Of a stretch of DNA of 64,000 bases, positions 8,683 through 54,380 are shown in pieces (the first letter of the stretch is position 1; each line of letters opens with the position of its first letter). The notes beneath the pieces were generated by a model. That model was not told the DNA's origin. It was given only the letters and a program-made list of their open reading frames with translations, and did not search any database. Location: assembly GCA_044357345.1 (NCBI GenBank), contig JBIKPR010000002.1, positions 21,914 to 85,913 of the forward strand, given 5' to 3'. The position numbers were made by a program, and so were the translations under genes. This stretch comes from Bacteroidia bacterium. Lineage in GTDB: Bacteria; Bacteroidota; Bacteroidia; NS11-12g; UBA955.

Positions 8683-8707
8683 GGTCGGTTTTTACCGGCC
8701 TTTTTTT
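8683..8707 (+). terminator. Rho-independent terminator of rplS
   Basis: ggtcggt-tttt-accggcc hairpin followed by T7. Its right arm starts the 49-bp tandem repeat. Confidence 0.6.
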
Positions 8708-8837
8708 ATGCCCCCCAAAGGGCATGAAAAAATATATAGTTTACCGGCCTTTTTTTATGCCCCCCAAAGGGCATGAAAAAATATATAGTTTACCGGCCTT
8801 TTTTTATGGGCGATGAATTAAGCCCATGAAAAAATTG
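8691..8837 (+). repeat. 49-bp tandem repeat, three copies (third diverged), each carrying a T-run/hairpin/A-run palindrome
   Basis: The unit tttaccggcctttttttatgccccccaaagggcatgaaaaaatatatag starts at 8691, 8740 and 8789. Copy 3 replaces atgccc..gggcat with atgggc..gcccat, so a hairpin is retained. Confidence 0.85.
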
Positions 8838-11085: not shown

Positions 11086-13077
11086 ATGCCTTTACGTAAA
11101 AATAACTCGGGAAAGTCTTCAGGACCCTTTAAGAAATCAGATGGTAGAAAGCCAGCTGATTCTTATAAAAAATCTGCGGGTCGTTCAGATTCAAATTCGA
11201 AATTTGGAGGAAGAGATTCTTCATTCAAAAAACCAAGAACCAATGACGATTCAAATGAATTAGCACCTCCTCGTTTCTTGCCGCCACGTGATGGCAACAA
11301 ATCATACGGACGCAAAGGTCCAGATAGCCGCGGTGGAAAACCAGCAGGTAGAGGCTACGGCAGCGACCGTGAAGACAGAGGATTCAATTCGGATTCGCGC
11401 AAACCAAGTTACCCAAGATCAGAAGAAGGTGGAAGCAGACCTCCTTACAAAAAACGCGAAGGCGGGTATGGCGATTCTGACTTTAAAAAACCAAGTTACC
11501 CAAGATCAGAAGAAGGTGGAAGCAGACCTCCTTACAAAAAACGCGAAGGCGGGTATGGCGATTCTGACTTTAAAAAACCAAGTTACCCAAGATCAGAAGA
11601 AGGTGGAAGCAGACCTCCTTACAAAAAACGCGAAGGCGGGTATGGCGATTCTGACTTTAAAAAACCTAGTTACCCAAGATCAGAAGAAGGTGGAAGCAGA
11701 CCTCCTTACAAAAAACGCGAAGGCGGGTATGGCGATTCTGACTTTAAAAAACCTAGTTATCCTAGAAATTCAGAAGAAGGTGGTAGCAGACCCCCATACA
11801 AAAAACGCGAAGGCGGATATGGTGATTCTGACTTTAAAAAACCTAGTTACCCTAGAAATTCAGAAGAAGGAAGCGGTAGAGCGCCATATAAGAAAAGAGA
11901 AGATAGCGCTAGAGATGGCGGATATAAGAAACCAGGATACAACAATGGATCTAACGATGCTGGTGGATACTCTCCATACAAAAAGCGCGAAGGTGCATCC
12001 GATGAAGGTGGCTACAAAAAATCAGCTTACTCCAAATCAGGTGATCAAGGTGGTGGATATTCTCCATACAAGAAAAGAGAATCAAGCGAGGGCGGGTATA
12101 AAAAGCCAGGGTTCGACCGCAATGCCGATGGCAAAGCACCTTATAAAAATAGAGAAGGCGATGGCCGCGATGGCGGATATGCTGGTAAATCAAATAACTA
12201 CCGCAGAAATGCAGATGACCAAGGTCCAAAAAGGCCTTTTAAACCAGAAGGCGAGGCTGATAAACCATTCAGACCGAAATACGATCCACAGGTTCAGATT
12301 AGAAAATCATATTCAGATAGAAAGAAGGAATTAACTGGAACACAAGACAGTCCAGATGATATTCGTTTAAATAAATACATCGCCAATTCTGGTGTTTGCA
12401 GTAGAAGAGAGGCGGATGATGTAATCAAACAAGGTTTAGTAAACATCAATGGAACTGTGGTAACAGAAATGGGACACCGCGTAAAGAAAGGTGATGTAGT
12501 TAAATTTGACGGAAGAAAAATTCTACCAGAACCATTCGTTTATATTTTAATGAATAAGCCAAAAGATTTTATAACGACCACAGACGATGAAAAAGGTCGT
12601 AAAACTGTTGTTGATTTATTGGCTGATAAAATACCTCAAAGGGTATATCCAATTGGTCGTTTGGACAGAAACACAACTGGTGTTTTGTTGTTGACCAACG
12701 ATGGCGATGTTGCCCAAGCGTTAACACACCCATCATTCCAAATTAAAAAAATTTACCATGCTGTCTTGGATAAAAAAGTAAGTGGCACCGATTTGGACAA
12801 ATTGGTTGAAGGTATAGAACTAGAAGACGGTGTGGTGCATGCAGATGCAGTGGCATTCGTCGACAATGAAGACAAACGCAATGTAGGTGTTGAAATCCAC
12901 AGTGGAAAAAACCGAGTTGTGAGAAGAATGTTTGAGCATTTGGGTTACGAAGTTGAGAAACTCGACCGCGTAAGCATGGGTATATTTACAAAGAAAGATT
13001 TGCCAAGAGGTAAGTGGAGATTTCTTAAGGAAAGCGAAATTGGTTTCTTAATGAAGCTAAAGGCCAACATGCCTTAA
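11086..13077 (+). CDS. rluB: RluB/RsuA-family 23S rRNA pseudouridine synthase with a roughly 400-aa repetitive low-complexity N-terminal extension
   Basis: The C-terminal 250 aa has an S4 domain (IRLNKYIANSGVCSRREAD) and the catalytic motif GRLDRNTTGVLLLTNDG. The N-terminus is a K/R/G/S/Y/P/E/D-rich tandem repeat. Confidence 0.85.
   Translation: MPLRKNNSGKSSGPFKKSDGRKPADSYKKSAGRSDSNSKFGGRDSSFKKPRTNDDSNELAPPRFLPPRDGNKSYGRKGPDSRGGKPAGRGYGSDREDRGFNSDSRKPSYPRSEEGGSRPPYKKREGGYGDSDFKKPSYPRSEEGGSRPPYKKREGGYGDSDFKKPSYPRSEEGGSRPPYKKREGGYGDSDFKKPSYPRSEEGGSRPPYKKREGGYGDSDFKKPSYPRNSEEGGSRPPYKKREGGYGDSDFKKPSYPRNSEEGSGRAPYKKREDSARDGGYKKPGYNNGSNDAGGYSPYKKREGASDEGGYKKSAYSKSGDQGGGYSPYKKRESSEGGYKKPGFDRNADGKAPYKNREGDGRDGGYAGKSNNYRRNADDQGPKRPFKPEGEADKPFRPKYDPQVQIRKSYSDRKKELTGTQDSPDDIRLNKYIANSGVCSRREADDVIKQGLVNINGTVVTEMGHRVKKGDVVKFDGRKILPEPFVYILMNKPKDFITTTDDEKGRKTVVDLLADKIPQRVYPIGRLDRNTTGVLLLTNDGDVAQALTHPSFQIKKIYHAVLDKKVSGTDLDKLVEGIELEDGVVHADAVAFVDNEDKRNVGVEIHSGKNRVVRRMFEHLGYEVEKLDRVSMGIFTKKDLPRGKWRFLKESEIGFLMKLKANMP
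11401..11925 (+). repeat. in-frame 87-bp (29-codon) tandem repeat, six copies
   Basis: Copies at 11401, 11488 and 11575 are identical. The copy at 11662 has 1 substitution. The copy at 11749 has a 3-nt insertion plus synonymous changes. The copy at 11839 is diverging. The unit encodes KPSYPRSEEGGSRPPYKKREGGYGDSDFK, and a degenerate YKKRE periodicity continues to about 12230. Confidence 0.9.
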
Positions 13078-17839: not shown

Positions 17840-18409
17840 ATGCTTAATTTCCAAGAAATCTTAACTGTTTCGTTTACGCTTTTTGCTGTAATTGATATCA
17901 TTGGTTCTATTCCAGTGGTTATCGACTTGCGCACTAAGATAGGTCATATTCAGTCTGAGGTTGCCACGCTAACTGCGGGTTTGCTCATGACTTTGTTCTT
18001 CTTTGTGGGTGAGAATTTCTTGAATTTATTGGGAATCGATATCCATTCATTTGCCTTAGCTGGTTCAATTGTGATTTTTATTATTGGATTAGAAATGGTT
18101 TTAGGAAGAGATTTATTTAAGGTAGATCCAGATCCAAAATCGGGTAGTATAGTTCCTATAGCATTTCCAATTATTGCAGGAAGTGGAACTTTAACCACCA
18201 TTATGTCTTTAAAATCTGAATTTGAAGCAGTGAATATTTATATTGGAATAATCATCAACTTGATAGTTGTTTATTTGGTTTTGAAATCGACCAATCGAAT
18301 CGAAAAAATATTAGGCAAAGGCGGCTTATTGGTTATTCGTAAATTCTTTGGCGTAATACTTATCGCTATTGCCGTTAAGATATTTAAAGGGAATTTGATG
18401 GCGGTGTAA
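17840..18409 (+). CDS. MarC family (UPF0056) integral membrane protein
   Basis: 189 aa, six predicted TM segments, N-terminal FTLFAVIDIIGSIPV pattern. Confidence 0.75.
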   Translation: MLNFQEILTVSFTLFAVIDIIGSIPVVIDLRTKIGHIQSEVATLTAGLLMTLFFFVGENFLNLLGIDIHSFALAGSIVIFIIGLEMVLGRDLFKVDPDPKSGSIVPIAFPIIAGSGTLTTIMSLKSEFEAVNIYIGIIINLIVVYLVLKSTNRIEKILGKGGLLVIRKFFGVILIAIAVKIFKGNLMAV

Positions 18410-18414
18410 TTTTT

Positions 18415-18672
18415 GGGCGCCTTCCCGTGCCCTTTGTCTGCGCTTTGCTCCGGCTTTGTGGCCAAAGCGCCACAAGAGCTGCACATCGGTCATCGGGGCG
18501 CAAAAAGAGAGTGAGAATGAAAGCGAATGCGGATTAGGTTGACGAGGAGCATGTCATTCAAAATGAAGTAAACAACTACTGCATCATCTCGCTGATGGCG
18601 TTTTTGGCAGGAACTAAGCGCAACGAAGTGTATCGTTCTCACGAGCTTGCGAGTACTCCAACAACATGTTTC
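18415..18672. repeat. GC-richer mosaic intergenic repeat cluster containing a REP unit with an expanded loop
   Basis: 18568-18669 reads gtaaacaactac...ggcgtttttggcagg[about 48-nt block]ctccaacaacatgt. The arms match the RAYT-flanking REPs, and the inserted block matches 41199-41233 in the inverse orientation. 18506-18530 carries the gagagtgagaatgaaagcgaat module also seen at 48.66, 48.77 and 52.54 kb. Confidence 0.75.
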
Positions 18673-18740
18673 AATTTTTTAAATTTCACGTTGAAAGGTC
18701 TTTCATAAAGAAATTCCTTTGGGTTTTCCTTAATTAAAAA

Positions 18741-21488
18741 TTAAAGAGAATCTAATTTTCTAGCGATTGAAGTTTCTTCAAATATTTCTAAGTTGTCACC
18801 AACTTCTATATTTTGGAAATTCTTGATAGAGATACCACACTCAAAGCCTTTAACCACATCTTTCACATCGTCTTTGAAACGTTTTAAAGAGTCGAGAGAA
18901 CCTTGGTGAATAACCACACCATCACGTATTAAGCGGATTTTAGCACTTCTGGTAACTTTACCATCTGTAACCATACAACCTGCGATTGTACCAACTTTAG
19001 TGATTTTGAACACATCGCGGACTTCAACGTTACCAATAATGGTTTCTTTGATTTCAGGACTTAACATACCTTCGATAGCCGATTTGATTTCGTCGATGGC
19101 TTGGTAAATAACTGAATAGTGTCTGATATCAATTTGTTCGGTTTCAGCAATTTTCTTGGCACTAGAGCTTGGTCTAACTTGGAAACCGATGATGATGGCA
19201 TCTGAAGCAGACGCTAACAATACATCACTTTCTGTGATTTGACCCACACCACGGTGAATTACTTTAACCAAAACCTCTTTATTTGATAGGTTCAACAACG
19301 AATCGCTCAATGCTTCAACAGAACCGTTCACGTCACCTTTGATGATTAAGTTAAGTTCTTTGAAGTTGCCAATAGCAAGACGTCTTCCAATCTCGTCGAG
19401 CGTTATATGTTTGGTTGTTCTGATGCCTTGCTCGCGCATCAATTGTTCGCGTTTGTTCGCTAAATCTTTTGCTTCATCTTCACTTGGCAATACGTTTAAC
19501 GGGTCACCAGCTGAAGGGGTTTCAGAGAATCCAAGCATACTAACAGGCGTTGATGGTCCTGCGAATTCCACTCTTTGGTTTCTTTCGTTAAACAAAGCTT
19601 TCACTTTTGCATAATGAGAACCTGCTACTAGGTGGTCGCCTACCCTTAATGTTCCCGTTTGAATCAATACACTTGCTACCACACCACGGCCTTTATCAAG
19701 ACGGGCTTCAACAATTGTACCTTTCGCTTTTCTTTCTGGATCTGCTTTCAACTCAAGGAGTTCAGCTTCTAATAGTATTTTTTCCAAAAGTTTGTCGATG
19801 TTCAAACCTTTTTTGGCTGAAATCTCTTGGCTTTGGAATTTACCGCCCCATTCTTCTACAAGAATGTTCATGGCAGAAAGTTCTTCTCTAATTTTCTCAG
19901 GGTTAGCACCTTCTTTATCCATTTTATTAATGGCAAATATCATTGGTACGTTTGCTGCTTGTGCGTGGGAGATTGCTTCACGCGTTTGTGGCATGAGGCT
20001 GTCGTCTGCCGCAATCACAATAACTGCTATATCGGTAACTTTAGCACCACGGGCACGCATAGCTGTAAAAGCTTCGTGACCAGGAGTATCTAAGAAAGTT
20101 ATTTTTTGTCCTTTTGCCAATTGAACTTCATAGGCACCGATGTGTTGGGTGATGCCACCTGCTTCACCAGCAATTACATTGGCATTGCGCACATAGTCCA
20201 ACAGAGATGTTTTACCATGGTCAACGTGACCCATTACGGTTACGATTGGAGGACGAGAGATTGTTTTTGTTGGGTCATCTTGTTCCTCATCAATTGCGAT
20301 GGTGTCTTGTGCATCAACGAATTCAACTTCAAAGCCGAATTCATCTGCTACTAGAGTAATGGTTTCAGCATCCAAACGTTGGTTAATGGACACCATTAGA
20401 CCCAATGAGAAACAGGTTGAAATAACTTGCGTTACTTGAACGTCCATCATTTTCGCCAAATCGTTCGCAGTTAAGAATTCTGTTACTTTCAGAATTAAGT
20501 CTTCCTGCTCCATTCTTTCCCTCTCTACGTTTCTAGCTTGATAGTGGTCGTCTCTCTTTTGTCTTTTAAACTTAGATTTATTTGTTTTACCACGTCCTGA
20601 AGAGTCAATTTTATTTAATGTCTTCTTCAGTTTATCTTGAATTTCCTTTTGGGTAATTTCTTTTTTAGGCTCGTTAGGTCTTTGTCCTATATTGGTTCTG
20701 TTAACTTTAATTTCTTGTTGAATGTTAACTTTTTGCGGACCTGACTTGCGTTTGCGTTTTTCTCTGTTTAGTTTCTCAGCTGGGGTAAGGAATTTAGATT
20801 TCATTACCGGATCAGGTCTCAACTCAATTTTACCTTTGATGGTTAGACCGTCCAATTCAACCAAATTGGCTTTTACCAATTCTCTTTCGTCAATTTCTGG
20901 AACAACAGTTTCTGTAACTGGTACAAGAACTGGTTTCACTTCTGTTATTGGCTCAGGTGCTTTTACCACAATAATTGGTTTAGCTTCTGGTGCTTTATTT
21001 TCTTTTCTTTTCCTGCCGCCTGGACCAGGTAATTCGATCTTGCCCATAACAGTTAAACCTGTTTTTTCAATTTTTTCTTCTTGAATAGGTTCAATAACAG
21101 GCGTTTCAACTACAACTATTGGTTCTGGAATTGGAGCTGGCTTCTCTTTAACGACCGGCGCAATTACCTCTGGCGTCATATTTTTGATAAACAATTCAGG
21201 CTCAGGTTCTGGCTCAATTTGTTTTTCCTCCTCTTTCTTTTTGTTAACTACTTCTTCAACCTTAACAACATCTTCGCGTTTTTTTAATTTAAGGCCTGCT
21301 GATTTAGACTCTTCTTTTGCTTCTTTATCTGAAGAGAAAATGCCTGCAATGTAGCCGTACATTTCTTCCGTAAGCTTCGCCGTTGGTTTGTTGTCAATGG
21401 CAAAACCTTTCTTCTGCAAACTTTCTATAATTGTTTGCGTACTTACATTGAATTCCGATGCCGCTTTTCCTAATCTTATTTCTGCCAT
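18741..21488 (-). CDS. infB: translation initiation factor IF-2
   Basis: 915 aa with the G-domain motifs [13 protein letters not shown] and NKMD, and a K/E/P-rich N-terminal region. Confidence 0.97.
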
Positions 21489-36076: not shown

Positions 36077-36835
36077 ATGAAAATCATTTCATACAACGTA
36101 AACGGCATTCGTTCTGCCATGAGTAAAGGTTTTGTTGATTTTTTAAAACAGGAAAATCCCGATACCGTTTGTCTCCAAGAAATTAAAGCCCAAGAACAAG
36201 ACATTGACCAAGCTGCTTTGGAAGCTTTGGGTTACCATTGCTATTGGTTTCCTGCCGAGAAGAAAGGCTATAGTGGGGTAGGTATACTGAGTAAAGAAAA
36301 AGCAAAATCAGTGCATAAAGGCATGGGCCATTATTTGTTTGACTCAGAGGGTCGTGTGATCAAAGCAGTGTTTGAAAACTGTGAAGTTATCAGTGCCTAT
36401 TTTCCTTCCGGTACTACTGGTGATATACGTCAACAAGTGAAGTATGAGTTTTTAGAAGCCTTTCATCAGTTTATCCAAAACGATCCGAACAGAGATAAAT
36501 TGTTGGTGTGCGGCGATTATAATATTTGCCATAAAGAAATAGATATACACGATCCCGTAGGCAATAAAAATTCAAGTGGTTTTTTACCTGAAGAACGGGT
36601 GTGGATGGACCAATGGTTTGGAAGTGGTATGCACGATAGCTTTAGGTTAATTAATCAGGAGCCTCACCATTACACATGGTGGAGTTTTAGAACTGCTGCC
36701 CGAGCGCGCAACAAGGGTTGGAGAATCGACTACATTTCAATTGGAGATAGCATCCGCGAAAGGCTAAGTGCTGCGGGCGTTTTGAGTGCTTATGTGCACA
36801 GCGACCATTGCGGATTATACGCTGAGATAAAATGA
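36077..36835 (+). CDS. xth: exodeoxyribonuclease III
   Basis: MKIISYNVNGIRS, CLQE, GDYN and SDHC motifs of the Xth/APE1 family. Confidence 0.92.
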   Translation: MKIISYNVNGIRSAMSKGFVDFLKQENPDTVCLQEIKAQEQDIDQAALEALGYHCYWFPAEKKGYSGVGILSKEKAKSVHKGMGHYLFDSEGRVIKAVFENCEVISAYFPSGTTGDIRQQVKYEFLEAFHQFIQNDPNRDKLLVCGDYNICHKEIDIHDPVGNKNSSGFLPEERVWMDQWFGSGMHDSFRLINQEPHHYTWWSFRTAARARNKGWRIDYISIGDSIRERLSAAGVLSAYVHSDHCGLYAEIK

Positions 36836-37584
36836 ACTTTTTAAAACGTTTATTGCCTAAATCATTCAAACAATTTTTGTGGTTTGTGTTCAAATCCCCA
36901 CAAAGAAAATGGATTGGATTTTTGTCGGTAATAAGCGATTTAAAGGCATGGTTTTCCACTAGAAAAAGACCAAATAATTTACAAGCAATTAGTGTCTGTG
37001 TCGGGATTAAAAACCGCAGCCATAATTTATTAAATTACGTCATCCCATCGCTTAATTTATGTCATGGTTTAGAAATGATTGAGCTGTCTGTATTCGACTG
37101 TGGCAGCGATGATATGCATGATTTGGAATCAGAAATTCGCAAGCTTTGGAAGGGTAAATTGGTTTACAAGCAAGCGCCTCAAAAATTTGCACGAAGCATT
37201 AGTTTTAATGCAGCAGTTAAACAAAGTACAAACAACTTAATATTAATTTGCGATGCTGACATGTCCTTGCCTCAAGATGTTCTTGAAAAAGTAAACCGTT
37301 ACATTGGGAAATATTCTGCTTGGTTTCCGCAAATTTGGTTTTGCCACGAAGATGGTACTGGTCATTTTATGTCTGAGGGCACAGGAATTATGGCAAGCCA
37401 ACGTCAGCAGTTTTTAGATCTTGGGGGTTATGATGAAAGCATCACCGAATGGGGCAAGGAAGATTGGCTTTTGTTTTTTGAATTTTATAAAAAAGGCATA
37501 GGCTGTATGCGCAGCAATGAACCGAATTTTATACACCATTACCACGAGAGCTTGAAGCCGGAGGGATTTATACCCTTATTTTGA
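36832..37584 (+). CDS. GT-A fold glycosyltransferase (galactosyltransferase-like)
   Basis: ICDADMSLP (DxD) and LGGYDESITEWGKEDWLLF. ATGA overlap with xth. Confidence 0.55.
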   Translation: MNFLKRLLPKSFKQFLWFVFKSPQRKWIGFLSVISDLKAWFSTRKRPNNLQAISVCVGIKNRSHNLLNYVIPSLNLCHGLEMIELSVFDCGSDDMHDLESEIRKLWKGKLVYKQAPQKFARSISFNAAVKQSTNNLILICDADMSLPQDVLEKVNRYIGKYSAWFPQIWFCHEDGTGHFMSEGTGIMASQRQQFLDLGGYDESITEWGKEDWLLFFEFYKKGIGCMRSNEPNFIHHYHESLKPEGFIPLF

Positions 37585-37673
37585 GCAGAGCTTAAAATAA
37601 GCAACAGCAAGAGGGCTGAGTGGAGTTGGAAATACGAGGAGATCTCGAAATAAGTGAAAATAAAAATACGATT

Positions 37674-37733
37674 ACATGTTGTTGGAATCCCTGCCAACAA
37701 CGCCGCCAGTGCGATGACATAGTAGTTGTTTAC
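37674..37733 (+). repeat. REP unit (hairpin plus tail), left flank of RAYT
   Basis: acatgttgttggaatccctgccaacaacgcc followed by gccagtgcgatgacatagtagttgtttac. Confidence 0.8.
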
Positions 37734-37770
37734 GCTTGTAAGTAGTTCTAATTTTTTGTATCTTTAAGAT

Positions 37771-38304
37771 ATGAAAGCTAAATTTAATGAAACACTATTC
37801 TTCACTGCAACCGATCTAAATTGGATGCCTCTATTACAAAGTAAAACAAATAAGAATGATATTTTAGATTGTTTGAGTTATCTATCTAAGAATGACAAAT
37901 GTAGAATATATGCATTCGTTATTATGCCGAATCACATTCACTTAATTCTCGATTTAATTTCTATAAACAAATCTTCATTTCAAAACAGTTTTTTAGCTTA
38001 TACTGCTAAGCAATGTTTAAATCACTTGAAAAATACGAACTCTATATACCTGCCAAATTTAAAATCTACACAAGGTGATCGTCAATTTCAATTTTGGGAA
38101 CGTAACCCTTTTTGGACTTACATTCAAAATGAAGAATTAATGATTCAGAAAATTGGATACATTCATTTAAATCCAGTTCGCAAAGGCTATTTGAAATGTA
38201 AAACTGGTAGAGATTACTTTTACAGTTCCGCAAAGTCTTATGCAGATAAAACGGCTTATTTCGATTTTTTGAACTTAACCTGTCTTAATTATGAATGGGG
38301 TTAG
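37771..38304 (+). CDS. REP-associated tyrosine transposase (RAYT; IS200/IS605-like Y1 HUH transposase)
   Basis: HUH motif in FVIMPNHIHLIL and the catalytic-Tyr helix GYIHLNPVRKGY. 177 aa, and no tnpB partner. Confidence 0.85.
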   Translation: MKAKFNETLFFTATDLNWMPLLQSKTNKNDILDCLSYLSKNDKCRIYAFVIMPNHIHLILDLISINKSSFQNSFLAYTAKQCLNHLKNTNSIYLPNLKSTQGDRQFQFWERNPFWTYIQNEELMIQKIGYIHLNPVRKGYLKCKTGRDYFYSSAKSYADKTAYFDFLNLTCLNYEWG

Positions 38305-38319
38305 CGCGCCTGAAGAGAC

Positions 38320-38379
38320 GTTAACAACTATATTAACATTTTTTTTATGGCGTTGTTGGCAGGGATTCCAACAACATGT
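38320..38379 (-). repeat. REP unit, right flank of RAYT (inverted)
   Basis: gttaacaactat...ggcgttgttggcagggattccaacaacatgt. The last 31 nt are the exact reverse complement of 37674-37704. Confidence 0.8.
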
Positions 38380-38408
38380 TTTAGGAAGTCTTGTCCTAAC
38401 TGTTTCCC

Positions 38409-38888
38409 CTACTGTGCGTTCAAAAATGACAACTGTGCCATTTCTTTTTCTTGCTCGGAGCGCATGCCTATGCCTAGGTCGCCAGCATTGCTAACGTAGA
38501 AGGCAAGTTCTTTTAAACTGGTATATAAATCGTGGGCGAAAGTAGAATCTAGTTTTGGGAAAATATCGTTTAAGCCTTTCAACATAGAGATCAACATGTC
38601 GTTTCTTTCTGTGGTTGATTCGGGCAAAGAGCTAATTAACATTTCTATGCTTTCTTCAGTGTGTCCATCAACGGTTTTGTAAACGCCACTTACATCGCGG
38701 GTTTCAGAATACGTTTTGATGTGGATGATTTTAACGGCTTGTTCGATTTCGCTAGGGGTGAATTCACCATCAGAACCAGACACCAAGGCTGAAATTAATA
38801 CTGGTGCATTAACGATTAAATTTTTTTCGGCTGACGATAAATGTTCTATTTTGCTGAGCATACAAATGTTTATATTACTTTTGCGCAA
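38409..38888 (-). CDS. hypothetical protein (weak TerB-like DGxxxxxE pattern)
   Basis: 159-aa ORF with SGSDGEFTPSEIEQA. The true start may be the internal MLSKIEH (38861). Confidence 0.4.
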   Translation of the reverse strand: MRKSNINICMLSKIEHLSSAEKNLIVNAPVLISALVSGSDGEFTPSEIEQAVKIIHIKTYSETRDVSGVYKTVDGHTEESIEMLISSLPESTTERNDMLISMLKGLNDIFPKLDSTFAHDLYTSLKELAFYVSNAGDLGIGMRSEQEKEMAQLSFLNAQ

Positions 38889-38914
38889 AAGTACAATTTT
38901 TTAGCTTTGACACA

Positions 38915-39556
38915 ATGGTAGAAATGGTGAAATTTTTTTTAAGGGAGGAATGGAAAGGCAAATACGCTATTGTCGGGGCTTTTCTGTACATTTTTACCGC
39001 GGTTCTCATCACGTTTTTAAGTCTCCCAGGCATGGACAAGCCCCATTTTAGTGCCATCTTCTGGATTGTTATTGTATTTACCACCTTGCAAGGCATCTCA
39101 AAAGCCTTTATACAAATGCGCAAAAACAATTTCGTTTTTTGGCATCAAATCTGTTCCCCTCAACATTTTTTAGCCGCCCGTTTAATCACCTCAGCGCTTT
39201 TAATGATGGTCTTTACCTTATTCGCGTATGCCGTGTTTACCCTCATGCACGGTCAAGTGAGCGAAGGTGGTCCTAGTTTCTTATTGGTCTGCCTTGTTAC
39301 GGGCATAGGCATATCGTCTATCTTTACCATTAGCAGCAGCATAGCTACCAAAACAGATAATCCAGGTGTCTTATTGCCGGTATTGACTTTCCCTGTTATT
39401 CTGCCCTTAATCTTAATAGGTTCCAAAGCAGGCAAAAAGGCCATCGATGAACTAGGTTTCTCGGTCCTGCTTCCCGACCTATTGGTGCTTATGGCATTTA
39501 ATGTTTTGATTGTGGTAATGGGCTTGGTGTTGATTAAGTTTATATGGAAGGAGTAG
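38915..39556 (+). CDS. CcmB-like (heme exporter B / ABC-2 type) integral membrane protein
   Basis: 213 aa, six TM segments, N-terminal REEWKGKYAIVGAFLYIFTAVLITFLS resembling Bacteroidota CcmB. No ccmA or ccmC adjacent. Confidence 0.45.
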   Translation: MVEMVKFFLREEWKGKYAIVGAFLYIFTAVLITFLSLPGMDKPHFSAIFWIVIVFTTLQGISKAFIQMRKNNFVFWHQICSPQHFLAARLITSALLMMVFTLFAYAVFTLMHGQVSEGGPSFLLVCLVTGIGISSIFTISSSIATKTDNPGVLLPVLTFPVILPLILIGSKAGKKAIDELGFSVLLPDLLVLMAFNVLIVVMGLVLIKFIWKE

Positions 39557-39868
39557 CTCTTCGCCTTGCGAAGAGCTACTCCACAACAGCAAGAGGGCTG
39601 AGTGGAGTGGGAAATACGACGAGATTTCGAAAATATTATAGATCAAAAAATACGATTACATGTTGTAATGGCGTTTTTTTTAAGTGTAACACTTTGAAGG
39701 GCGAAGAGCTATTCCACAACAGCAAGAGGGATGAGTGGAGTAGGAAATACGACTAGATTTCAATTCAATAACAATTGACGAAATTGCATAGAAACTCGAG
39801 CTCGAAATTTATAGGGATACTAGAATCTCCAAACTACATCGACTAAACTCAGCCCTGTTGCTGTTGTT
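39550..39868. repeat. mosaic intergenic repeat cluster
   Basis: A 14-15-bp-stem hairpin (39550-39582) spans the upstream stop codon. The block caacagcaagaggg(c/a)tgagtggagt.ggaaatacga occurs at 39584-39632 and 39717-39761, inverted at 39846-39868, and also at 37602-37650. A truncated REP arm (acatgttgtaatggcg) lies at 39658-39673. Confidence 0.8.
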
Positions 39869-39886
39869 CCTTATTGAGCCGGAGGC

Positions 39887-41086
39887 TCAATAAGCATAGT
39901 CCGTCAAATACTCATACTCATGTGTCAACTTACCGTCTTTGCAAATGCATGCATTGTCGATGACTGTGCTTTCGGTTTTGAGTAGTTCAGGTATTACGTA
40001 TTCGATGAGCATTGCACCGAAGCCTTCGCTGGCATCGCGGGGTAGTTCAGTTGGTAAATTGCCTACCGCCATAATGTCGATGGTGTTGTCTAAATACGGC
40101 TCACACATGCTCATTGACATAGGATCGTAACCAAATACAGGGTCAAATATCTTGGTGTCTTTTAAAGTAATGGGAACACCACCATTTACATCGCAACTGA
40201 TATCGGCAATCACTTTGGTTTTGAAGGTACTTAATCGGGTGTCGTTTTCAGAAAACAAACGGTCCATACGCTCGTCCCAGTAAATGCCATTAATCAATAA
40301 ATCGCAATGCGGTAAATAGTACCTAAACACACAACGGTAACGGGTAGGGTCGTGGTGAAAATCGCTTCTATCATAAGCCTTGCCATCAATACGCTCGTAT
40401 AGGTTTTCACTTAACAAAACTGCAAACACCGGTTCTGCAAATATCTTGGTTAAAATATCCGCTGGTGTTACCTGTTTGATGCCTACTTCGTTTAATAACT
40501 CAAGGGCACCTAGTGACACACGCCCATTGCCGGTAAGAATGATTTTTATATTTGGTAAAATTGCTTTTTTTAGCTCGCGTTTTAGCTCAGCATAATCCCC
40601 ACATTGGTAGGCCGGTTTGAGATCGAAAGTCTTGTATTTCTTACCCCAAGCGATCAGTCCGTTGTAAGCACCAACCACACCAGCAAAGCGACCAAAACCA
40701 AGTATACGGTCGCCGTTTTTCCAACGCAAGGTTTCGTAATCAATGAGTTTAATTTTCTTTTCAATCAATGCATGCATCAAGCCTTTGTTGTGTGCTTGTT
40801 TTTTGATGGTATGCGAAAAGAATAAATAGGTTTTATTGGCTATCAATTTATCGGACGGAACTTCCTTAATTCCGAATAAAAAATCGCAGGCACTCAGGTC
40901 TTCTTTTACTTCAACGCCCACTTTCGTGTATAATTCATCAGAAAAGCAACGATCGTTCGACGATTGGATCAAGAGTTGCAATTGTGGGTAACGCGACTTC
41001 AATTCAACACACTGTGCAGGGGTAAAGGCTACACGTTTATCAGCGGGTTGTTTTTCTTCTCGAATAATACCGATTGAGATGGACAT
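39887..41086 (-). CDS. AlaDH/PNT-family NAD(P)-dependent oxidoreductase (saccharopine dehydrogenase-like)
   Basis: GIIREEK..ADKRVAFTP start, a central GNGRVSLGA Rossmann motif, about 400 aa. Confidence 0.6.
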   Translation of the reverse strand: MSISIGIIREEKQPADKRVAFTPAQCVELKSRYPQLQLLIQSSNDRCFSDELYTKVGVEVKEDLSACDFLFGIKEVPSDKLIANKTYLFFSHTIKKQAHNKGLMHALIEKKIKLIDYETLRWKNGDRILGFGRFAGVVGAYNGLIAWGKKYKTFDLKPAYQCGDYAELKRELKKAILPNIKIILTGNGRVSLGALELLNEVGIKQVTPADILTKIFAEPVFAVLLSENLYERIDGKAYDRSDFHHDPTRYRCVFRYYLPHCDLLINGIYWDERMDRLFSENDTRLSTFKTKVIADISCDVNGGVPITLKDTKIFDPVFGYDPMSMSMCEPYLDNTIDIMAVGNLPTELPRDASEGFGAMLIEYVIPELLKTESTVIDNACICKDGKLTHEYEYLTDYAY

Positions 41087-41186
41087 GGGGCAAAGGTAAT
41101 GGAAACGGATGTATTAGGGGATAAGGTCTAGTGTTTAGGGTATAGTTTTTTGATATTGCTTGATTATAGCCAATGCTAAAATTGAT

Positions 41187-41233
41187 ACATGTTGTTGGTA
41201 TACTCGCGAGCTCGTGAGAACGCTTCACTTCGT
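41187..41233 (+). repeat. half REP unit with expanded-loop block
   Basis: acatgttgttggtatactcgcgagctcgtgagaacgcttcacttcgttgcgc matches the reverse complement of 18623-18669 with a few mismatches. The closing ccaacaac arm is missing. Confidence 0.7.
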
Positions 41234-41404
41234 TGCGCATTTGCAACTTTGCACGAATTCTGCCGCGGGGAGTGGAGTCTCTGGTACATTGATCAATTCA
41301 TCAATATTTCAATTCCTAATTTTCTCACTTTATCACTTGCTTTGCTTACAAAAGAAGCCATGCCTTAAGTAAGTGTACTATTGATAAAAATGAAATGTAT
41401 TTAG

Positions 41405-42226: not shown

Positions 42227-42500
42227 GGGAATAACTTTGTTGTTCCCGAGGTGGGGGCCTTACAAGGACATTCATTTCAATGCGCTTTTATTCAAAAGCT
42301 TTTTTTTAGAGTGAATGAGAATGTGAAATATTAGGGAATAACTTTGTTGTTCCCGAGGTGGGGGACTTACAAGAACATTCATTTCAATGCGCTTTTATTC
42401 AAAAGCTTTTTTTTAGAGTGAATGAGAATGTGAAATATTAGGGAATAACTTTGTTGTTCCCGACGTGGGGGCCTTACAAGGACAAACAATTGAATGCGCT
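42227..42500 (+). repeat. 107-bp tandem repeat, 2.5 copies
   Basis: Unit starts (gggaataactttgttgttcccga...) at 42227, 42334 and 42441. Each unit has a 9-bp-stem hairpin gggaataac-ttt-gttgttccc and the agagtgaatgagaatgtgaaat module. Confidence 0.85.
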
Positions 42501-42566
42501 TTTTCAAAGCTTTTTTTAATTCCATCTCTGCTTTTGAAAGTGAACTTTCAACGCATTAATAGAATT

Positions 42567-42595: not shown

Positions 42596-42611
42596 CAATT
42601 GTTTGTTCTTG

Positions 42612-42979
42612 TGGAGCTGGAGGGAATCGAACCCTCGTCCGAACTAGGAAATGATGGCGCTTTCTACATGTTTAGAAACCATTATTTTTCGAGTTGTGAA
42701 AGCTTGGTTTCAGACCTTGCCACAACCTTATGCTACTTGTAATGCAAACAGCCGCTGCAACACTGCTTACATACCCGGGTATGTCGAACACCGTAACCCG
42801 TTACCGACCCAGACAAGGGCAACGACAGTGTATGGAAATTTACCTAATCACTGATTAAGCAGCCATTGCGAAGTTATTTTCGCCTCTTGAAGTTTTGAGT
42901 GTTGAGATTAAAGAGCCAGCAAACAAAGCTCTACATGCTTACACCCCATTCGCTCTACCCGTCAATTCCGGTCAGCCCC
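42612..42979 (-). ncRNA. ssrA: transfer-messenger RNA (tmRNA)
   Basis: The minus strand starts ggggctgaccggaattgacgg and ends ggacgagggttcgattccctccagctcca (T-arm plus acceptor). The internal tag ORF ggc gaa aat aac ttc gca atg gct gct taa (42855-42884) encodes GENNFAMAA. The two track ORFs here are spurious. Confidence 0.9.
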
Positions 42980-46739: not shown

Positions 46740-47279
46740 TTATCGTTGTTTATTGGCTATTAAAAGGTCGCAAAGAAGAAACGTACAACGATAATTTACC
46801 CAAATGGGTAATTAATGGAGTGCATTTACCTTTGTTGCGAAGGCTCGGCACAAAATTATTTTGTAAGGCAATCTGACTTTTCCATTTCTGGAATTACAGT
46901 TACGCAATAGTTCATGATTTTCACATGATTTCCCTTATTTTCTGTAACAGAAGCAAAATAATGATGTAAAGAACTGATGCAAATTTAGTAAGTTTTCTGC
47001 CTCAAAATTTTATATTTAGACACACTCTTTAAACAATATTTTTTGCTGTTCGCTTAAACCGAATGCTTGTTTTTACTGTTTTACATGGTGCTAAAAATTA
47101 CCCAAAGTGGCGTTAATACTTAAAACGGAAATCGAGCTAAACAGTTAAGTCAATAAAATGTTTGCTGCTTACACTTGCTTTTTTTCAATTCCTTGTCTAC
47201 AATTTAATGCGCTTAAAAATCGATTCACAATCCTTTCTTTCTTTTTTGTAAAATAAGCATGGATTTCATGAAATGCGAG

Positions 47280-48314: not shown

Positions 48315-48349
48315 GGGAGCGATAAATTGATTTACATATCGTTAAATTA

Positions 48350-48378
48350 CCATTGGGGTGGAAAACACCCCAATGACA
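48350..48378 (+). repeat. 29-nt hairpin repeat module, copy 1
   Basis: ccattggggtggaaaacaccccaatgaca (10-bp stem), identical to 52244-52272. Confidence 0.85.
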
Positions 48379-48618
48379 GCATTTCGGTCACGAGCTCAGG
48401 GTAATCCCATTATATATGGTTTTGTAAAAACTTCAAAGCCCTGAAAGGGCAACATTTCTCTAGCCATGGGAATGCCCATGGTATATTACGGAATGCACAA
48501 ACAAATTATCGAATTTTCGCCCAAGGTTTATTACGTGAAGTACAAATGAGCGCATCGTTCAAAAGGCCCCTGAGACATCATTCTGTTTACGAGGCTTATT
48601 GGAGATGATGATCTTAAT

Positions 48619-48875
48619 CGAAATCACATCGAATTTCCTACCGCCCCCTTAAGGAGAGTGAGAGTGAATGTGAAAGCGAACACAGCAACAGAACTACTTA
48701 CATTGATAAGGAACAGGATTTAAGATTATTACCCGAAATTACATCGCATTTCCTACTGCCCCCTTAAGGAGAGTGAGTGTGAATGTGAAAGCGAACACAG
48801 CAACAGAACTACTTACATTGATAAGGAACAGGATTTAAGATTATTACCCGAAATTACATCGAATTTCCTACTGCC
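48619..48875 (+). repeat. 115-bp tandem repeat, 2.2 copies
   Basis: Unit starts (cgaaat.acatcg.atttcctac.gcc...) at 48619, 48734 and 48849. The unit contains gcccccttaaggagagtgag.gtgaatgtgaaagcgaacacagcaacag. Confidence 0.85.
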
Positions 48876-51067: not shown

Positions 51068-51787
51068 TTAATCTTCAGAAGAACGGCTTAAAGAATAGAT
51101 AACCAAACCAAAACCGATTTTGTTTATTGCATCAGCAATGTTGTATACAATATCCATAGCATGAGCTGCTGCAGCTGGATCAGATACCAATTGGATACCT
51201 AACAATCCACCTGGAGTACCTAGGATGTAACCTAGAGGGTAGATAGCCCAACCAACTAAAACGAACCAAGCCAATACTCTTGTAGCTTTTGCAACTTGAG
51301 GGCCTGCTGATTGAGCCAATTTAGCTACATCACCAAACCAAATTAAATACACGATGTAGAAATAAGCAGCACCTGAGATAACACCCCATAATACGCTGTT
51401 TGTTCTGTCGATTGTTTCGCCGAAATAACCAGTAACCAACATCACTAATGATGCTAAGATTAATTTCCATAACAAACCAATTTTCGCACCAGCTTTCTTA
51501 GTGATTAAGTAAAACTCAACACACATCAAAGGCACAGTAAGAATCCAATCCACATAACGGAAAAAAGTTGGAGAATCACCAGTTTCCAAATTGTAACCTC
51601 TCATGTAGTAGTAGTGAACTGCTGCAATGAAGGTAATCAAACCAGAAACCAAAACTGAGGTTCTCCATTTTGGTGAAGTGTTGTTTAGTTCAAAGAAAAA
51701 GAAAACTGAGGCGGCCATCATGGCCATTGTTCCGATAAAAAACGTAAATGCTACGTAGTTATCGCTTGCGATTTTTAAATGTTCCAT
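51068..51787 (-). CDS. proteorhodopsin-type light-driven proton pump (DTE motif, Met at tuning position 105)
   Basis: Seven TM segments. RYVDWILTVPLMCVEFYL gives D97/T101/E108 with M105. His75-equivalent in AAVHYYYMR. Schiff-base Lys in YNIADAINKIGFG. Confidence 0.93.
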   Translation of the reverse strand: MEHLKIASDNYVAFTFFIGTMAMMAASVFFFFELNNTSPKWRTSVLVSGLITFIAAVHYYYMRGYNLETGDSPTFFRYVDWILTVPLMCVEFYLITKKAGAKIGLLWKLILASLVMLVTGYFGETIDRTNSVLWGVISGAAYFYIVYLIWFGDVAKLAQSAGPQVAKATRVLAWFVLVGWAIYPLGYILGTPGGLLGIQLVSDPAAAAHAMDIVYNIADAINKIGFGLVIYSLSRSSED

Positions 51788-52243
51788 CTTGTATTTTTTT
51801 ATTGTTCCCTACTCTTGAGGCCTTTCGGATTTCGCCAATTTTTAAGTGTTTTTTCACTTTACGGTTCAATAATAACATAATCTTTTATAATTTGTTTTTT
51901 AATACGGGTAAAAAAAAATAAGTTATTGAAAATAAGGGCAATAAATTTTTTTAAATCTCTTTATTTTTGGCTTTCATCGAATTTTTATCTATTATAACTG
52001 CACTTTAAAATCCAGACTTGTTTATTTTATGTTAAACAAAGCTGGTTTGTGGGGGGGGTATAAATAGATCCCAGTAGTAGAGATTTTACTCCCCATGTCA
52101 GAATTCGCTCAAAGCTGCGAATACCCTGCACTAGAATTTTTTTTCACAAAATACACAGCAGGGCAAAGCGACACCGGGCAGGTTGTTGCGTCACGTAACG
52201 GGATGGATAAATTGATAAATTGTTTTATTATTTCGTTAAAGAA

Positions 52244-52272
52244 CCATTGGGGTGGAAAACACCCCAATGACA
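52244..52272 (+). repeat. 29-nt hairpin repeat module, copy 2
   Basis: Identical to 48350-48378 and in the same orientation. The flanking cgttaaa..accattgg is also similar. Confidence 0.85.
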
Positions 52273-52416
52273 CATTTCGTGTAGGACTCAGGGGGGCACT
52301 CCTGAGACAATATGTTTCACTTATTTGAAATTTTGATGTAAATGAGAAATTGATCCCTGCACAAGATCCTTCTAAGAGTTGCGGGAAATCTACAGGAAGC
52401 ATAAATTTATAATATC

Positions 52417-52476
52417 GTAAACAACTACACCATCATCGCACTCGTGGCGTTGTTGGCGAGGACTCCATCAACATGT
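52417..52476 (-). repeat. REP unit (dispersed copy)
   Basis: gtaaacaactacaccatcatcgcactcgt followed by ggcgttgttggcgaggactccatcaacatgt, which matches the RAYT right-flank hairpin at 27 of 31 positions. Confidence 0.75.
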
Positions 52477-52515
52477 TTCAATTATTTTAAAAAACGATAT
52501 TAGTTGAAATAACCA

Positions 52516-52664: not shown

Positions 52665-54380
52665 CTACTGATTCACAAACTCCACAAAAAACGTACTGCC
52701 TGCATCAGGTGTACTTTCTACCCAAATGCGACCGTTCATTGATTCGATTTGTGTTTTGGTCATATGCAAACCAAATCCTTTTGAGGATGGGTGTTTATGG
52801 AAGACTTTACCAATTTTAAACACATTGTTTTGATGCCTGTCTAGGTCAATACCTAAACCATTGTCTTTTATACTAAGAACAATATTGTCGTTGAATTTTT
52901 CGGTTTTGATTTCTATGCGCGGGCTGCGGTTGGGTGAATGGTATTTGAGTGCATTGCTGATAAGGTTATGCAATATGCTTTTCAAATATTTTGAAGGGAA
53001 GCGGATTTCTGGAGCTTCTTCACAATGAACAATGATTTCAGCTTTTAATTTTTCGATTTCAATGTCTAGACCTTGGCAAATGGATTGGACTTTTTTGCTG
53101 ATATCATTAATTTCCAATTTGACATCGATGTCTTGTTTCACTTGCAGTGATTCGACTAACTCGTTAAACATTTCATTTAAGCTTTGGACAACAGGATCAA
53201 TTTTGTCTATCATTTCCTTTTTCTCTGCTTCATCTTGCGCATCTTGAATGAATTTTATAAGCATTGAAATGTTAACCAACGGGCCTCTTAAATTATGGGA
53301 TACAATGTTGCAAAAATCGTTTAGTTGGGTATTTTGATATGACAACTGTTGCGTGAGTATAACTTGTTTGTTTTCCATTTCTATTCGCTCCGTGATGTCG
53401 ATGCCATAACCTATTACAATTTCAACATTGTTGTTAACGTCTAATATTGGAACCAGGTGTTTGAGTATCGACTTTTTTTCTCCATTTTTAGAGATTATGG
53501 TTTCTTCCCACTGAATCTCTTTTTTGAGGGTAATGGCATCATAGAATTTGTTTTGAGTATGAATGGCTTGTGTTATGTCTAGGCCAGTAATGTCGATACA
53601 ATCAAAATAGTTTTTGCCAATTATTTGTTTTCTTATTGACTCATCTGGAATGGAAGTGGGATTGATGAACAAATAGTTTTGTTTTCGATCAAAAACCAAG
53701 ATGTTTGGTGGCAGACTGTTTAGGATGTTTTCGTAAAAAGCTTTGAGTTCATTGTTTTTTTGTTCAGCAATAACAATGTTGCTTATGTCTTGAAATATGC
53801 CAATGATAAGCGCTCCATCTGTGTTTGAATCAAGAACGCGTCCCTCGATATGAAAATACGCATTGGTGTTTGAAAGTTTTGCTCTGTCAAATACAAAGCT
53901 GCTTTTGTTTTTAACTGAATTTACAATTATTTTTGTTGATTCAACTGCGTTGTCGAAATGTTTTATGATGTGTTTTATTCCCTTACTGAAGTCAACATGG
54001 TGTTCATCAAACATTCGGATCAGTTGATCTGATAATTCTAGTTGGCGGGTATTGATGTCCCAAGTAAAGTTGCCCAAATTGGCAATTTTTTCTGCATTTT
54101 TAAGGTTGTAACTGGCTTTGGTTAGATGTGCAGTTTTCTTTTCAACGGTTCCACTAAGGGTGTTGTTTAATTTGTTGAGTTCATTGTTCTTTTTGAACAG
54201 TTCTTGTGAACTTTGAGAAAGAATGTTCTCAATGTGGGCAATGTCTTGGTCGTAGTTATAATAGGCAGAATTAACCACCTCGAGAAAAGCGTCAAGGTCG
54301 TCCTTAGTAATTTCTTGCAAAGAACCTAGATGGTCATTTACTTGTCTTTTTAGCAGTCTATGAAAATTGCTTTTAATCAT
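52665..54380 (-). CDS. cytoplasmic PAS-domain sensor histidine kinase
   Basis: H-box FCNIVSHNLRGPL. N, G1 and G2 boxes NLISNALKY, DNGLGID and GFGLHMTK. Coiled coil plus two PAS-like regions, no TM segments. Confidence 0.88.
   Translation of the reverse strand: MIKSNFHRLLKRQVNDHLGSLQEITKDDLDAFLEVVNSAYYNYDQDIAHIENILSQSSQELFKKNNELNKLNNTLSGTVEKKTAHLTKASYNLKNAEKIANLGNFTWDINTRQLELSDQLIRMFDEHHVDFSKGIKHIIKHFDNAVESTKIIVNSVKNKSSFVFDRAKLSNTNAYFHIEGRVLDSNTDGALIIGIFQDISNIVIAEQKNNELKAFYENILNSLPPNILVFDRKQNYLFINPTSIPDESIRKQIIGKNYFDCIDITGLDITQAIHTQNKFYDAITLKKEIQWEETIISKNGEKKSILKHLVPILDVNNNVEIVIGYGIDITERIEMENKQVILTQQLSYQNTQLNDFCNIVSHNLRGPLVNISMLIKFIQDAQDEAEKKEMIDKIDPVVQSLNEMFNELVESLQVKQDIDVKLEINDISKKVQSICQGLDIEIEKLKAEIIVHCEEAPEIRFPSKYLKSILHNLISNALKYHSPNRSPRIEIKTEKFNDNIVLSIKDNGLGIDLDRHQNNVFKIGKVFHKHPSSKGFGLHMTKTQIESMNGRIWVESTPDAGSTFFVEFVNQ

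Follow-up and report, generated by a model that had tools for sequence, protein, structure and literature searches.

REP/RAYT systems, which pair a repetitive extragenic palindrome (REP) with a REP-associated tyrosine transposase (RAYT, also called TnpA-REP), are the textbook example of a domesticated bacterial transposase. In the TnpA-Y1 classification of Quentin, Siguier, Chandler and Fichant (2018, BMC Genomics 19:475, PMC6006769), subclass 2.6, equivalent to RAYT group 5 of Bertels et al. (2017), is found mostly in Bacteroidetes and comprises proteins of mean length 179 aa, with the motifs NH[LIV]H, WQ and YIH[QN]NP, a Ser-Ser motif and an alphaC-beta4 insertion. The genes of this subclass are flanked by hairpins that recur elsewhere in the genome and have no GT[AG]G foot; these structures were called 'atypical', were located by manual inspection, and are exemplified in Table S1 of that study by GCCGTTGTTGGTGTTATCACCAACAACC / TGATGCCGTTGTTGGTGTTATCACCAACAACC for Runella slithyformis AEI49282.1. 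For group 5, Bertels et al. (2017) reported ~31 occurrences per replicon of the flanking 16-mers and no signs of gene duplication. The window studied here is a 64,000-nt (64-kb) stretch of DNA from a Bacteroidia bacterium (Bacteroidota; NS11-12g; UBA955), taken from the forward strand of contig JBIKPR010000002.1 (positions 21,914 to 85,913) of GenBank assembly GCA_044357345.1. It contains a RAYT gene at 37771..38304 (+) bracketed by two inverted hairpin units, a locus that is very probably a REPtron of the Bacteroidetes subclass 2.6 / group 5 type, that is, a domesticated, chromosomally fixed Y1 transposase of the HUH (histidine-hydrophobic-histidine) superfamily with two inverted cognate REPs. 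An initial annotation made from the sequence had proposed a complete REPtron, and this is supported by the protein family, the inverted arms and the dispersed extragenic units described below. The novelty it implied for a Bacteroidota example did not hold, as the subclass had been described by Quentin et al.; this kind of system has been known in Bacteroidetes since 2018, and the window locus is a further example.

The two arms form a perfect inverted pair, as the initial annotation had stated. In a repeat search, positions 37674-37704 were the exact reverse complement of 38349-38379 (ACATGTTGTTGGAATCCCTGCCAACAACGCC; 31/31, 100% complementary), with 644 nt between the arms. With up to 3 mismatches allowed, the 31-mer has just two sites in the window, namely the arms themselves, and 0/100 dinucleotide-preserving shuffles of the window yielded any 31-mer match, in keeping with the claim that the repeat lies far beyond chance. 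As single-stranded DNA each arm folds into an 8-bp stem (GTTGTTGG/CCAACAAC) with an 8-nt loop, again as annotated, and the 73-nt segments holding the arms have a modest predicted folding energy of -8 to -10 kcal/mol (z -1.4 to -3.3). On the gene-proximal side lies a tail, GTAAACAACTA on the left (reverse complement of 37723-37733) and GTTAACAACTA on the right (38320-38330), separated from GGC and the stem by the same 18 nt in both arms. The left REP unit (37674..37734, - strand) reads in minus-strand order CGTAAACAACTA, 18 nt, GGC, GTTGTTGG, CAGGGATT, CCAACAAC, ATGT. On the plus strand its parts are ACAT at 37674-37677, the stem at 37678-37685 and 37694-37701 around the loop at 37686-37693, the GCC foot at 37702-37704 and the tail at 37723-37734, so that its hairpin end is directed away from the RAYT gene. 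The right REP unit (38319..38381, + strand) consists of CGTTAACAACTA, 18 nt, GGC at 38349-38351, the stem at 38352-38359 and 38368-38375 around the loop at 38360-38367, and ATGT at 38376-38379. A covariance model of the unit matched the left copy with 83.6 bits (E 9e-16) and the right copy with 84.7 bits (E 5e-16).

Alignment of nine non-redundant units from the window and related metagenome-assembled genomes (MAGs) gives the consensus (C)GTAAACAACTA, 18 nt, GGC, GTTGTTGG, 8 nt, CCAACAAC, ATGT, in which the tail, the GGC foot, the stem and ATG are invariant among units from several genomes, the spacers vary, and the loops include CAGGGATT, CGAGGACT, CGGGGACT, TGATGATA and CAGGGATA. Among a wider set of copies that includes metagenome units, the truly conserved 5' motif is (T)CGTAAAC. 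Related tails had been annotated on both arms; they are present at equal spacing, with their AACTA part variable and (T)CGTAAAC conserved. The unit is thus ~61 nt long and made up of (T)CGTAAAC, ~29 nt of variable spacer ending in GGC, GTTGTTGG, a loop of 8 or ~40 nt, CCAACAAC and ATGT(TTCA). The (T)CGTAAAC motif, ~29 nt 5' of the stem, is always gene-proximal in RAYT brackets. The foot is (N)GGC, and the GT[AG]G tetranucleotide of canonical REPs is not present at the 5' stem foot in the aligned units. Short-loop and long-loop variants have an identical stem, and the same stem (GTTGTTGG/CCAACAAC) is found in the Runella hairpin of Table S1, the window hairpin being GGCGTTGTTGG-N8-CCAACAAC. An Rfam search of the window gave no RNA family over the REP unit.

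The RAYT gene encodes a protein of 177 aa with the HUH motif N54-H55-I56-H57-L58 (H55/H57), W109, the catalytic Y130 in Y130-IHLNPV, and S152-S153, so that the length and both motifs (NHIHL and YIHLNPV) given in the initial annotation are present. The comparison with Pfam Y1_Tnp that the annotation had proposed gave 23.5 bits, barely over the cutoff of 23. The NCBIfam model REP_Tyr_transpos (NF047646) was matched over its full length with 71.3 bits (E 8e-20), and the NCBIfam model of IS200 TnpA (NF033573) with 17.5 bits against a cutoff of 55. With a profile of 41 homologs, the E. coli TnpA-REP bound to REP (PDB 4ER8) was found at E 1.5e-6 and the best IS200-type chain at 2.6e-3. Structure prediction with AlphaFold2 gave a model of pLDDT 93.5, for which the top Foldseek match was again 4ER8 (TM 0.61/0.64, full length), whereas the TnpAs of IS200, IS608 and ISDra2 aligned over a ~125-residue core only. 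The protein is therefore of the RAYT type and not an IS200 TnpA, 4ER8 being the best match by both profile and fold. Invariant in 115 homologs (median 175 aa) are M52-P-N-H55-x-H57, W109, Y130-I-H-x-N134-P135 and S152-S153-A154, and the HuH-to-Tyr distance is 76 aa, compared with 75 aa in the window protein. The HUH, W and Y-x3-N motifs align with those of 4ER8, and at Y+4 all have Asn, like TnpA-REP and unlike IS200 TnpA with its Gln (PMC6006769).

The window protein very likely belongs to subclass 2.6. Its combination of WE and YIHLNP raised subclass 2.1 as a candidate (group 1, reported REP-less), which also has WE and Y[IV]HLNP and comprises longer proteins (238 aa; PMC6006769). This assignment is less likely given the length of the protein, its NHIH motif, the flanking hairpins and their Runella-type stem. 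Within the homolog family itself, WE (67 of the 115) is mixed with WQ (39), and YIHLNP (49) with YIHNNP (35).

Inverted hairpins bracket homologs down to 38% protein identity, and their stems differ by compensatory changes. Among the homologous loci (numbered with the prefix L), the inverted-repeat bracket is also seen at L005, L009, L023, L036, L035 and L030-L032. For example, L035 (57% identity) has ATTGTTGGTG-TTAT-CACCAACAAT and GCTGTTGGTG-ATAA-CACCAACAGC, L032 (42%) has TTTGCAGGTG/CACCTGCAAA in multiple copies on each side, L030 (39%) has TTGGTTGGTG/CACCAACCAA, and L031, from Mucilaginibacter sp. AW1-3 (38%), has GTTGTTGGTG-TTGT-CACCAACAAC, itself a Runella-type hairpin. Changes in the stems follow the RAYT lineage specifically, over the range of 38-100% protein identity.

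The unit also occurs apart from the gene. A covariance model built from the nine-unit alignment and run unfiltered on the 64-kb window found exactly four significant units (38320 +, 37733 -, 52417 + and 18568 +), that is, the two arms and two solo units. The solo unit at 52416..52480 (+), CGTAAACAACTAC ... GGCGTTGTTGGCGAGGACTCCATCAACATGTTTCA, scored 79.7 bits (E 6e-15), shares 84% identity with the left unit across 61 nt, has one stem mismatch, and lies in an 880-nt spacer with the open reading frames (ORFs) 51068..51787 and 52665..54380 on either side. The solo long-loop unit at 18567..18675 (+), which scored 33.4 bits (E 3e-5), has the convergent ORFs 17840..18409 and 18741..21488 on its two sides. 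It has the usual tail, spacer and stem, and its loop holds a conserved ~40-nt module (AAGCGCAACGAAGTG..TTCTCACGAGCTTGCGAGTACT) that recurs in both arms of the L005 ortholog and also at L024, L026 and L036. A partial unit at 41183..41238 (-) comprises the 3' half of a long-loop unit (...GCGCAACGAAGTGAAGCGTTCTCACGAGCTCGCGAGTATACCAACAACATGT) without the 5' arm and tail; it was found by a whole-window repeat search as 90% complementary to 18618-18678 over 61 nt, and gave no match to the full-unit covariance model. It is intergenic, upstream of a gene resembling alanine dehydrogenase (AlaDH), and all the window units, the four significant ones and the partial one, are extragenic. Comparison of the partial unit at 41.2 kb with L005 as a filled and an empty site gave no readable boundary, because L005 and the window have entirely non-homologous sequence in the spacer upstream of the AlaDH-like gene. 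Over the whole of the window (1-64000) the GC skew is positive, giving the plus strand a leading-strand composition, and both full solo units lie on the (+) strand, a number (n=2) too small for judging replication-strand bias.

Several other repeats lie close to these units. A second dispersed repeat, CAACAGCAAGAGGGCTGAGTGGAGT.GGAAATACGA..., occurs at 37602-37652, 39584-39640 and 39717-39770 (+) and at 39842-39866 (-), as well as in L005 (857-910) and L026 (6140-6165), and adjoins the outer end of the left REP arm. Positions 37602-37682 resemble 39584-39666 through the first 9 nt of the left arm (ACATGTTGT), after which the copy at 39.6 kb continues without a hairpin. A second palindromic repeat, AT.TCGTTAAA..ACCATTGGGGTG-GAAAA-CACCCCAATGACA, has 93% identical copies at 48336-48378 and 52230-52272; its 10-bp stem with a GGTG...CACC top resembles the hairpins of the distant RAYT homologs L030-L032, and it could represent either a terminator family or the REP of a further RAYT encoded elsewhere in the genome. 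The segment 52280-52320 holds yet another hairpin (GGACTCAGG-GGGGCA-CTCCTGAG), with CAATATGTTTCAC after it, which is also the 3' motif at REP unit ends; the solo unit at 52416 lies 100 nt downstream. Motifs rich in GAGTGAATG, at 18509, 42306, 48656 and 52540, recur in spacers that hold REP units.

Copies outside the window were sought in genome contigs with the pattern AACAACTA-N16-20-GGCGTTNTTGGC, in collections from which the source genome was absent. There were 18 matches, about the chance expectation, and these cluster solely in three freshwater Bacteroidota MAGs; in the corresponding scan of metagenome contigs, 7 contigs matched. In total, at least 10 gene-less loci with units were found in related MAGs or metagenomes, versus three RAYT contexts. 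With gene-less copies both in the window and in related genomes, the hairpin is not confined to the RAYT locus; such confinement is what the initial annotation had named as fatal to its proposal. Single units stand at many loci, some adjoining gene starts. The four gene-less doublets (L006, L011, L025 and L026) are all oriented with tails in and hairpins out, like every RAYT bracket (4/4; p ~0.004 under random orientation). Their spacers, of 70-320 nt, are unrelated to one another or to the RAYT gene. The doublets were considered as deletion derivatives of the cassette, akin to miniature inverted-repeat transposable elements, an origin ruled out by spacers without likeness to the gene or to each other.

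The exact protein is present in five independent metagenome assemblies, each time with the same synteny and with both arms. The gene order is NAD kinase, an exonuclease III-like gene, a family 2 (GT2) glycosyltransferase, the RAYT gene, two small ORFs, and a gene of the AlaDH/pyridine nucleotide transhydrogenase (PNT) type. The two small ORFs have no Pfam match, and no recombinase gene was found near the locus. As annotated, there is no tnpB partner among the RAYT neighbours, which are the GT2 glycosyltransferase, the small ORFs and the AlaDH/PNT-type gene. Syntenic orthologs are found in MAG Jr-16oct17-93 (L005, 87% aa identity) and in a metagenome (L023, 88%). The window, like each of the five assemblies, has one RAYT copy, and with a ratio of nonsynonymous to synonymous substitution rates (dN/dS) of 0.08-0.15 the gene is under purifying selection. 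Of 72,556 plasmid records, 6 have a relative, in each case at most 34% identical and on a large non-mobilizable replicon, and the phage records searched contain no RAYT relative.

Three chromosomal contexts, unrelated to one another, are seen for cassettes whose proteins are at least 76% identical: that shared by the window, L005 and L023, that of L009, and that of L036. L009, a second copy in MAG Jr-16oct17-93 (91.5% aa identity), adjoins a tRNA gene and aligns with the window from 37675 to 38382 only, exactly arm to arm. L036 (76% identity) has tails-in arms of the window unit type, one of them long-loop. When L009 (1852-2813) is compared with L026 (6134-6230), the whole cassette is present in one and absent from the other at the tRNA-adjacent site of two related organisms. 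L026 keeps the 3' half of a long-loop hairpin, fused to the identical right flank, which places the breakpoint inside the REP. Use of L026 as an intact empty site for reading off the cassette ends was ruled out, since half a hairpin is kept and the upstream DNA differs. The presence of L005 and L009 in one bin could be explained by MAG chimerism; their differing contexts are not so explained. The cassette of Mucilaginibacter sp. AW1-3 (L031, CP170601.1) is accompanied by a direct repeat of ~31 bp (ATTCTTATCCACATCATTAACGATAATCGCC) at 1408-1438 and 2071-2101. IS200-type elements produce no target duplications. The several contexts, the arm-to-arm homology, a low synonymous divergence (dS, detailed below), the oriented doublets and the direct repeat hint that the cassette has been relocated or exchanged over evolutionary time.

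A number of observations weigh against the identification of the locus as a domesticated, fixed REPtron of subclass 2.6. The REP_Tyr_transpos score lies below the NCBIfam curated equivalog cutoff of 80, which may be read as the mark of a divergent subclass instead of an exclusion, because the match extends across the full model length with E 8e-20. The window protein combines W-E with YIHLNP, where the published 2.6 consensus has WQ and YIH[QN]NP, and all published REP/RAYT biochemistry concerns proteobacterial systems (subclasses 2.2 and 2.5). The strict pattern gives just 2-4 copies per related MAG, and the unit family may be low-copy, with a handful to tens per genome, instead of a classical high-copy REP. 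Nor is the cassette strictly immobile, as 76-92% identical copies are found across three contexts. Finally, between the window and L005 the dS of the RAYT gene is 0.41 (SE ~0.08, for a short gene), below that of all four syntenic neighbours in window 36832-41086 (0.60, 0.99, 1.46 and 2.15).

Some of these points would suit an autonomous, tnpB-less, IS200-like insertion sequence (IS), an element whose 706-bp cassette moves as a whole and has given rise to the solo units and doublets as decayed ends or non-autonomous derivatives. Such an element would account for the arm-to-arm homology of L009 (37675 to 38382) in a different context by a tRNA gene, for the lack of the cassette at the same site in L026, for the third context of L036 (76%) with the same tails-in arms, for the ~31-bp direct repeat around the Mucilaginibacter cassette, and for a cassette dS of 0.41 beside syntenic neighbours at 0.60-2.15. 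It is nevertheless unlikely. There is a single copy in the window, in a locus identical in five assemblies, and the three cassettes, at ~10% divergence, are equidistant (dS 0.41-0.47) and hence not recent copies. Hidden Markov model (HMM), profile and fold comparisons all favour TnpA-REP over IS200 TnpA, as does the Asn at Y+4, and the ends of IS200/IS605 elements are different hairpins on one strand, in place of the identical inverted units seen here. The doublet spacers share nothing with the gene, and relatives are near-absent from plasmids and absent from the phage records. The half hairpin in L026 fits REP-mediated recombination or deletion as well as it fits transposition, and L005 and L009 may stem from a chimeric MAG. 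Grouping with IS200 TnpA together with multiple identical copies with conventional IS ends had been named in the initial annotation as evidence to the contrary; what was found is a TnpA-REP match and a single copy.

Other explanations accept the repeats and give them, or the gene, a different role. Bacteroidota are known for invertible segments with inverted repeats of 20-30 bp at their borders, so the arms might be the sites of an invertible switch, or they might be terminators or mRNA-stabilizing palindromes that flank the gene by chance and are not substrates of the transposase; at the window locus the hairpin ends are directed at the 3' ends of the adjacent genes, and a short T run follows the right arm. 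Both versions are highly improbable, since the segment has the same orientation in 5/5 assemblies and in all orthologs with no recombinase gene nearby, the unit occurs singly at many loci, including beside gene starts, the stems covary with the RAYT lineage as those of a generic terminator would not, and the hairpins are of modest stability with no consistent T tract among them. Equally improbable is a relic, in which gene and units are real, mobilization has ceased and the dispersed units are old fossils. The solo units of the window resemble the arms at 75-84% identity, with a stem mismatch in one copy and truncation of another, and counts in related MAGs are low, as this would lead one to expect; against it, every lineage retains an intact gene whose catalytic residues are invariant and whose dN/dS is ~0.1, the arms are identical at 31/31 positions though the intergenic DNA has been wholly replaced between the window and L005, and the stem, foot and tail motifs are invariant over nine units from several genomes. 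Somewhat less remote, and still doubtful, is the idea that the clade is an intermediate between an IS and a domesticated REPtron, its cassette still relocating or being exchanged between lineages and the distal (T)CGTAAAC, in place of a foot tetranucleotide, serving as a cleavage site like that at the left end of IS608. It is suggested by the three contexts, the arm-to-arm homology, the breakpoint in a hairpin, the low cassette dS and the 31-bp direct repeat, and if true, the tails-in orientation of the doublets would reflect directional insertion or recombination.

For the domesticated REPtron, a mechanism can be proposed by analogy with E. coli TnpA-REP and the TnpAs of IS608 and ISDra2. The protein would bind the folded hairpin in single-stranded DNA, for example in the lagging-strand template, and a metal bound by the HUH motif together with Tyr130 would cut nearby, probably at or near the unit boundaries, to give a 5'-phosphotyrosyl intermediate. 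Rejoining of the strands would then copy or move units and keep the family homogeneous. Obvious candidates for the cut sites are (T)CGTAAAC and ATGT, the sharply conserved termini of the unit. Catalysis, the sites of cleavage and any benefit to the host are extrapolated from these characterized relatives.

Elsewhere in the window, intergenic tandem repeats are found at 42227-42547 (107 nt x3, by the tmRNA gene), 48614-48843 (115 nt x2) and 8691-8837 (49 nt x3). Within ORF 11086..13077 (663 aa), positions 11314-12030 consist of in-frame tandem repeats of 87-90 nt, which give a repetitive PYKKREGGYGDSDFKKPSY-type segment. The only two Rfam matches in the window are a tmRNA at 42609-42979 (-; 118.7 bits) and an adenosylcobalamin (AdoCbl-II) riboswitch at 46858-46950 (-; 40.6 bits).

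Among more distant systems, the locus resembles the E. coli REPtron (TnpA-REP/YafM; Ton-Hoang 2012, Messing 2012; subclass 2.2, group 2) in having a single-copy HUH-Y1 gene with inverted REPs, and E. coli TnpA-REP (4ER8) is the best profile and fold match of the window protein. The two proteins are ~20% identical, however, and the E. coli REP has a GTAG foot at a bulged stem and hundreds of copies, arranged in bacterial interspersed mosaic elements (BIMEs), whereas the unit here has no GTAG, a perfect 8-bp stem, a distal motif and apparently far fewer copies. With the IS200/IS605 elements it shares the catalytic fold and HUH/Tyr chemistry, a coding sequence bordered by hairpins and some evidence of cassette relocation, and the left-end cleavage site of IS608, 19 nt upstream of the hairpin, recalls the distal 5' motif. 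The IS TnpAs differ in size (~130-150 aa) and in their Y-x3-Q motif, and the elements are multi-copy, common on plasmids and bounded by two different hairpins on the same strand; the window locus, by contrast, scores 17.5 bits with the IS200 HMM and has identical inverted ends and a single-copy syntenic gene. Like the REPINs (REP doublets) of Pseudomonas (Bertels and Rainey 2011), the system has frequent inverted doublets and a RAYT flanked by units. A REPIN folds as a single long hairpin around a short, conserved spacer, while the spacers here are 70-320 nt long and mutually unrelated, so that the doublet as such is not replicated as a conserved sequence.

The closest counterpart is subclass 2.6, which the locus resembles in protein length (177 aa, compared with a mean of 179), NH[LIV]H, Ser-Ser after the Tyr, a Bacteroidota host, a long HuH-to-Tyr distance (75 aa, compared with a median of 82 and with 58-67 in most other subclasses), and flanking hairpins without a GT[AG]G foot that have copies elsewhere in the genome. 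It differs in having W-E and YIHLNP instead of WQ and YIH[QN]NP, a shorter stem (8 bp, as against 10 bp) closed by a loop of 8 or ~40 nt where the subclass has a TTAT/TTGT tetraloop, an extra (T)CGTAAAC ~29 nt 5' of the stem, and a host from an uncultured freshwater lineage. The distal CGTAAAC, the long-loop variants, the tails-in gene-less doublets, the three cassette contexts and the low dS appear to be undescribed details. The locus thus offers a compact substrate and enzyme pair, with a 177-aa protein, a 61-nt unit of sharply distinct conserved and variable parts and natural loop variants, and is suited to asking how a GTAG-less TnpA-REP recognizes its REP and picks its cleavage site. The immobility usually ascribed to REPtrons is called into question by the variety of cassette contexts, the low dS and the shared orientation of the doublets, but the locus is still classified as a known kind of system.

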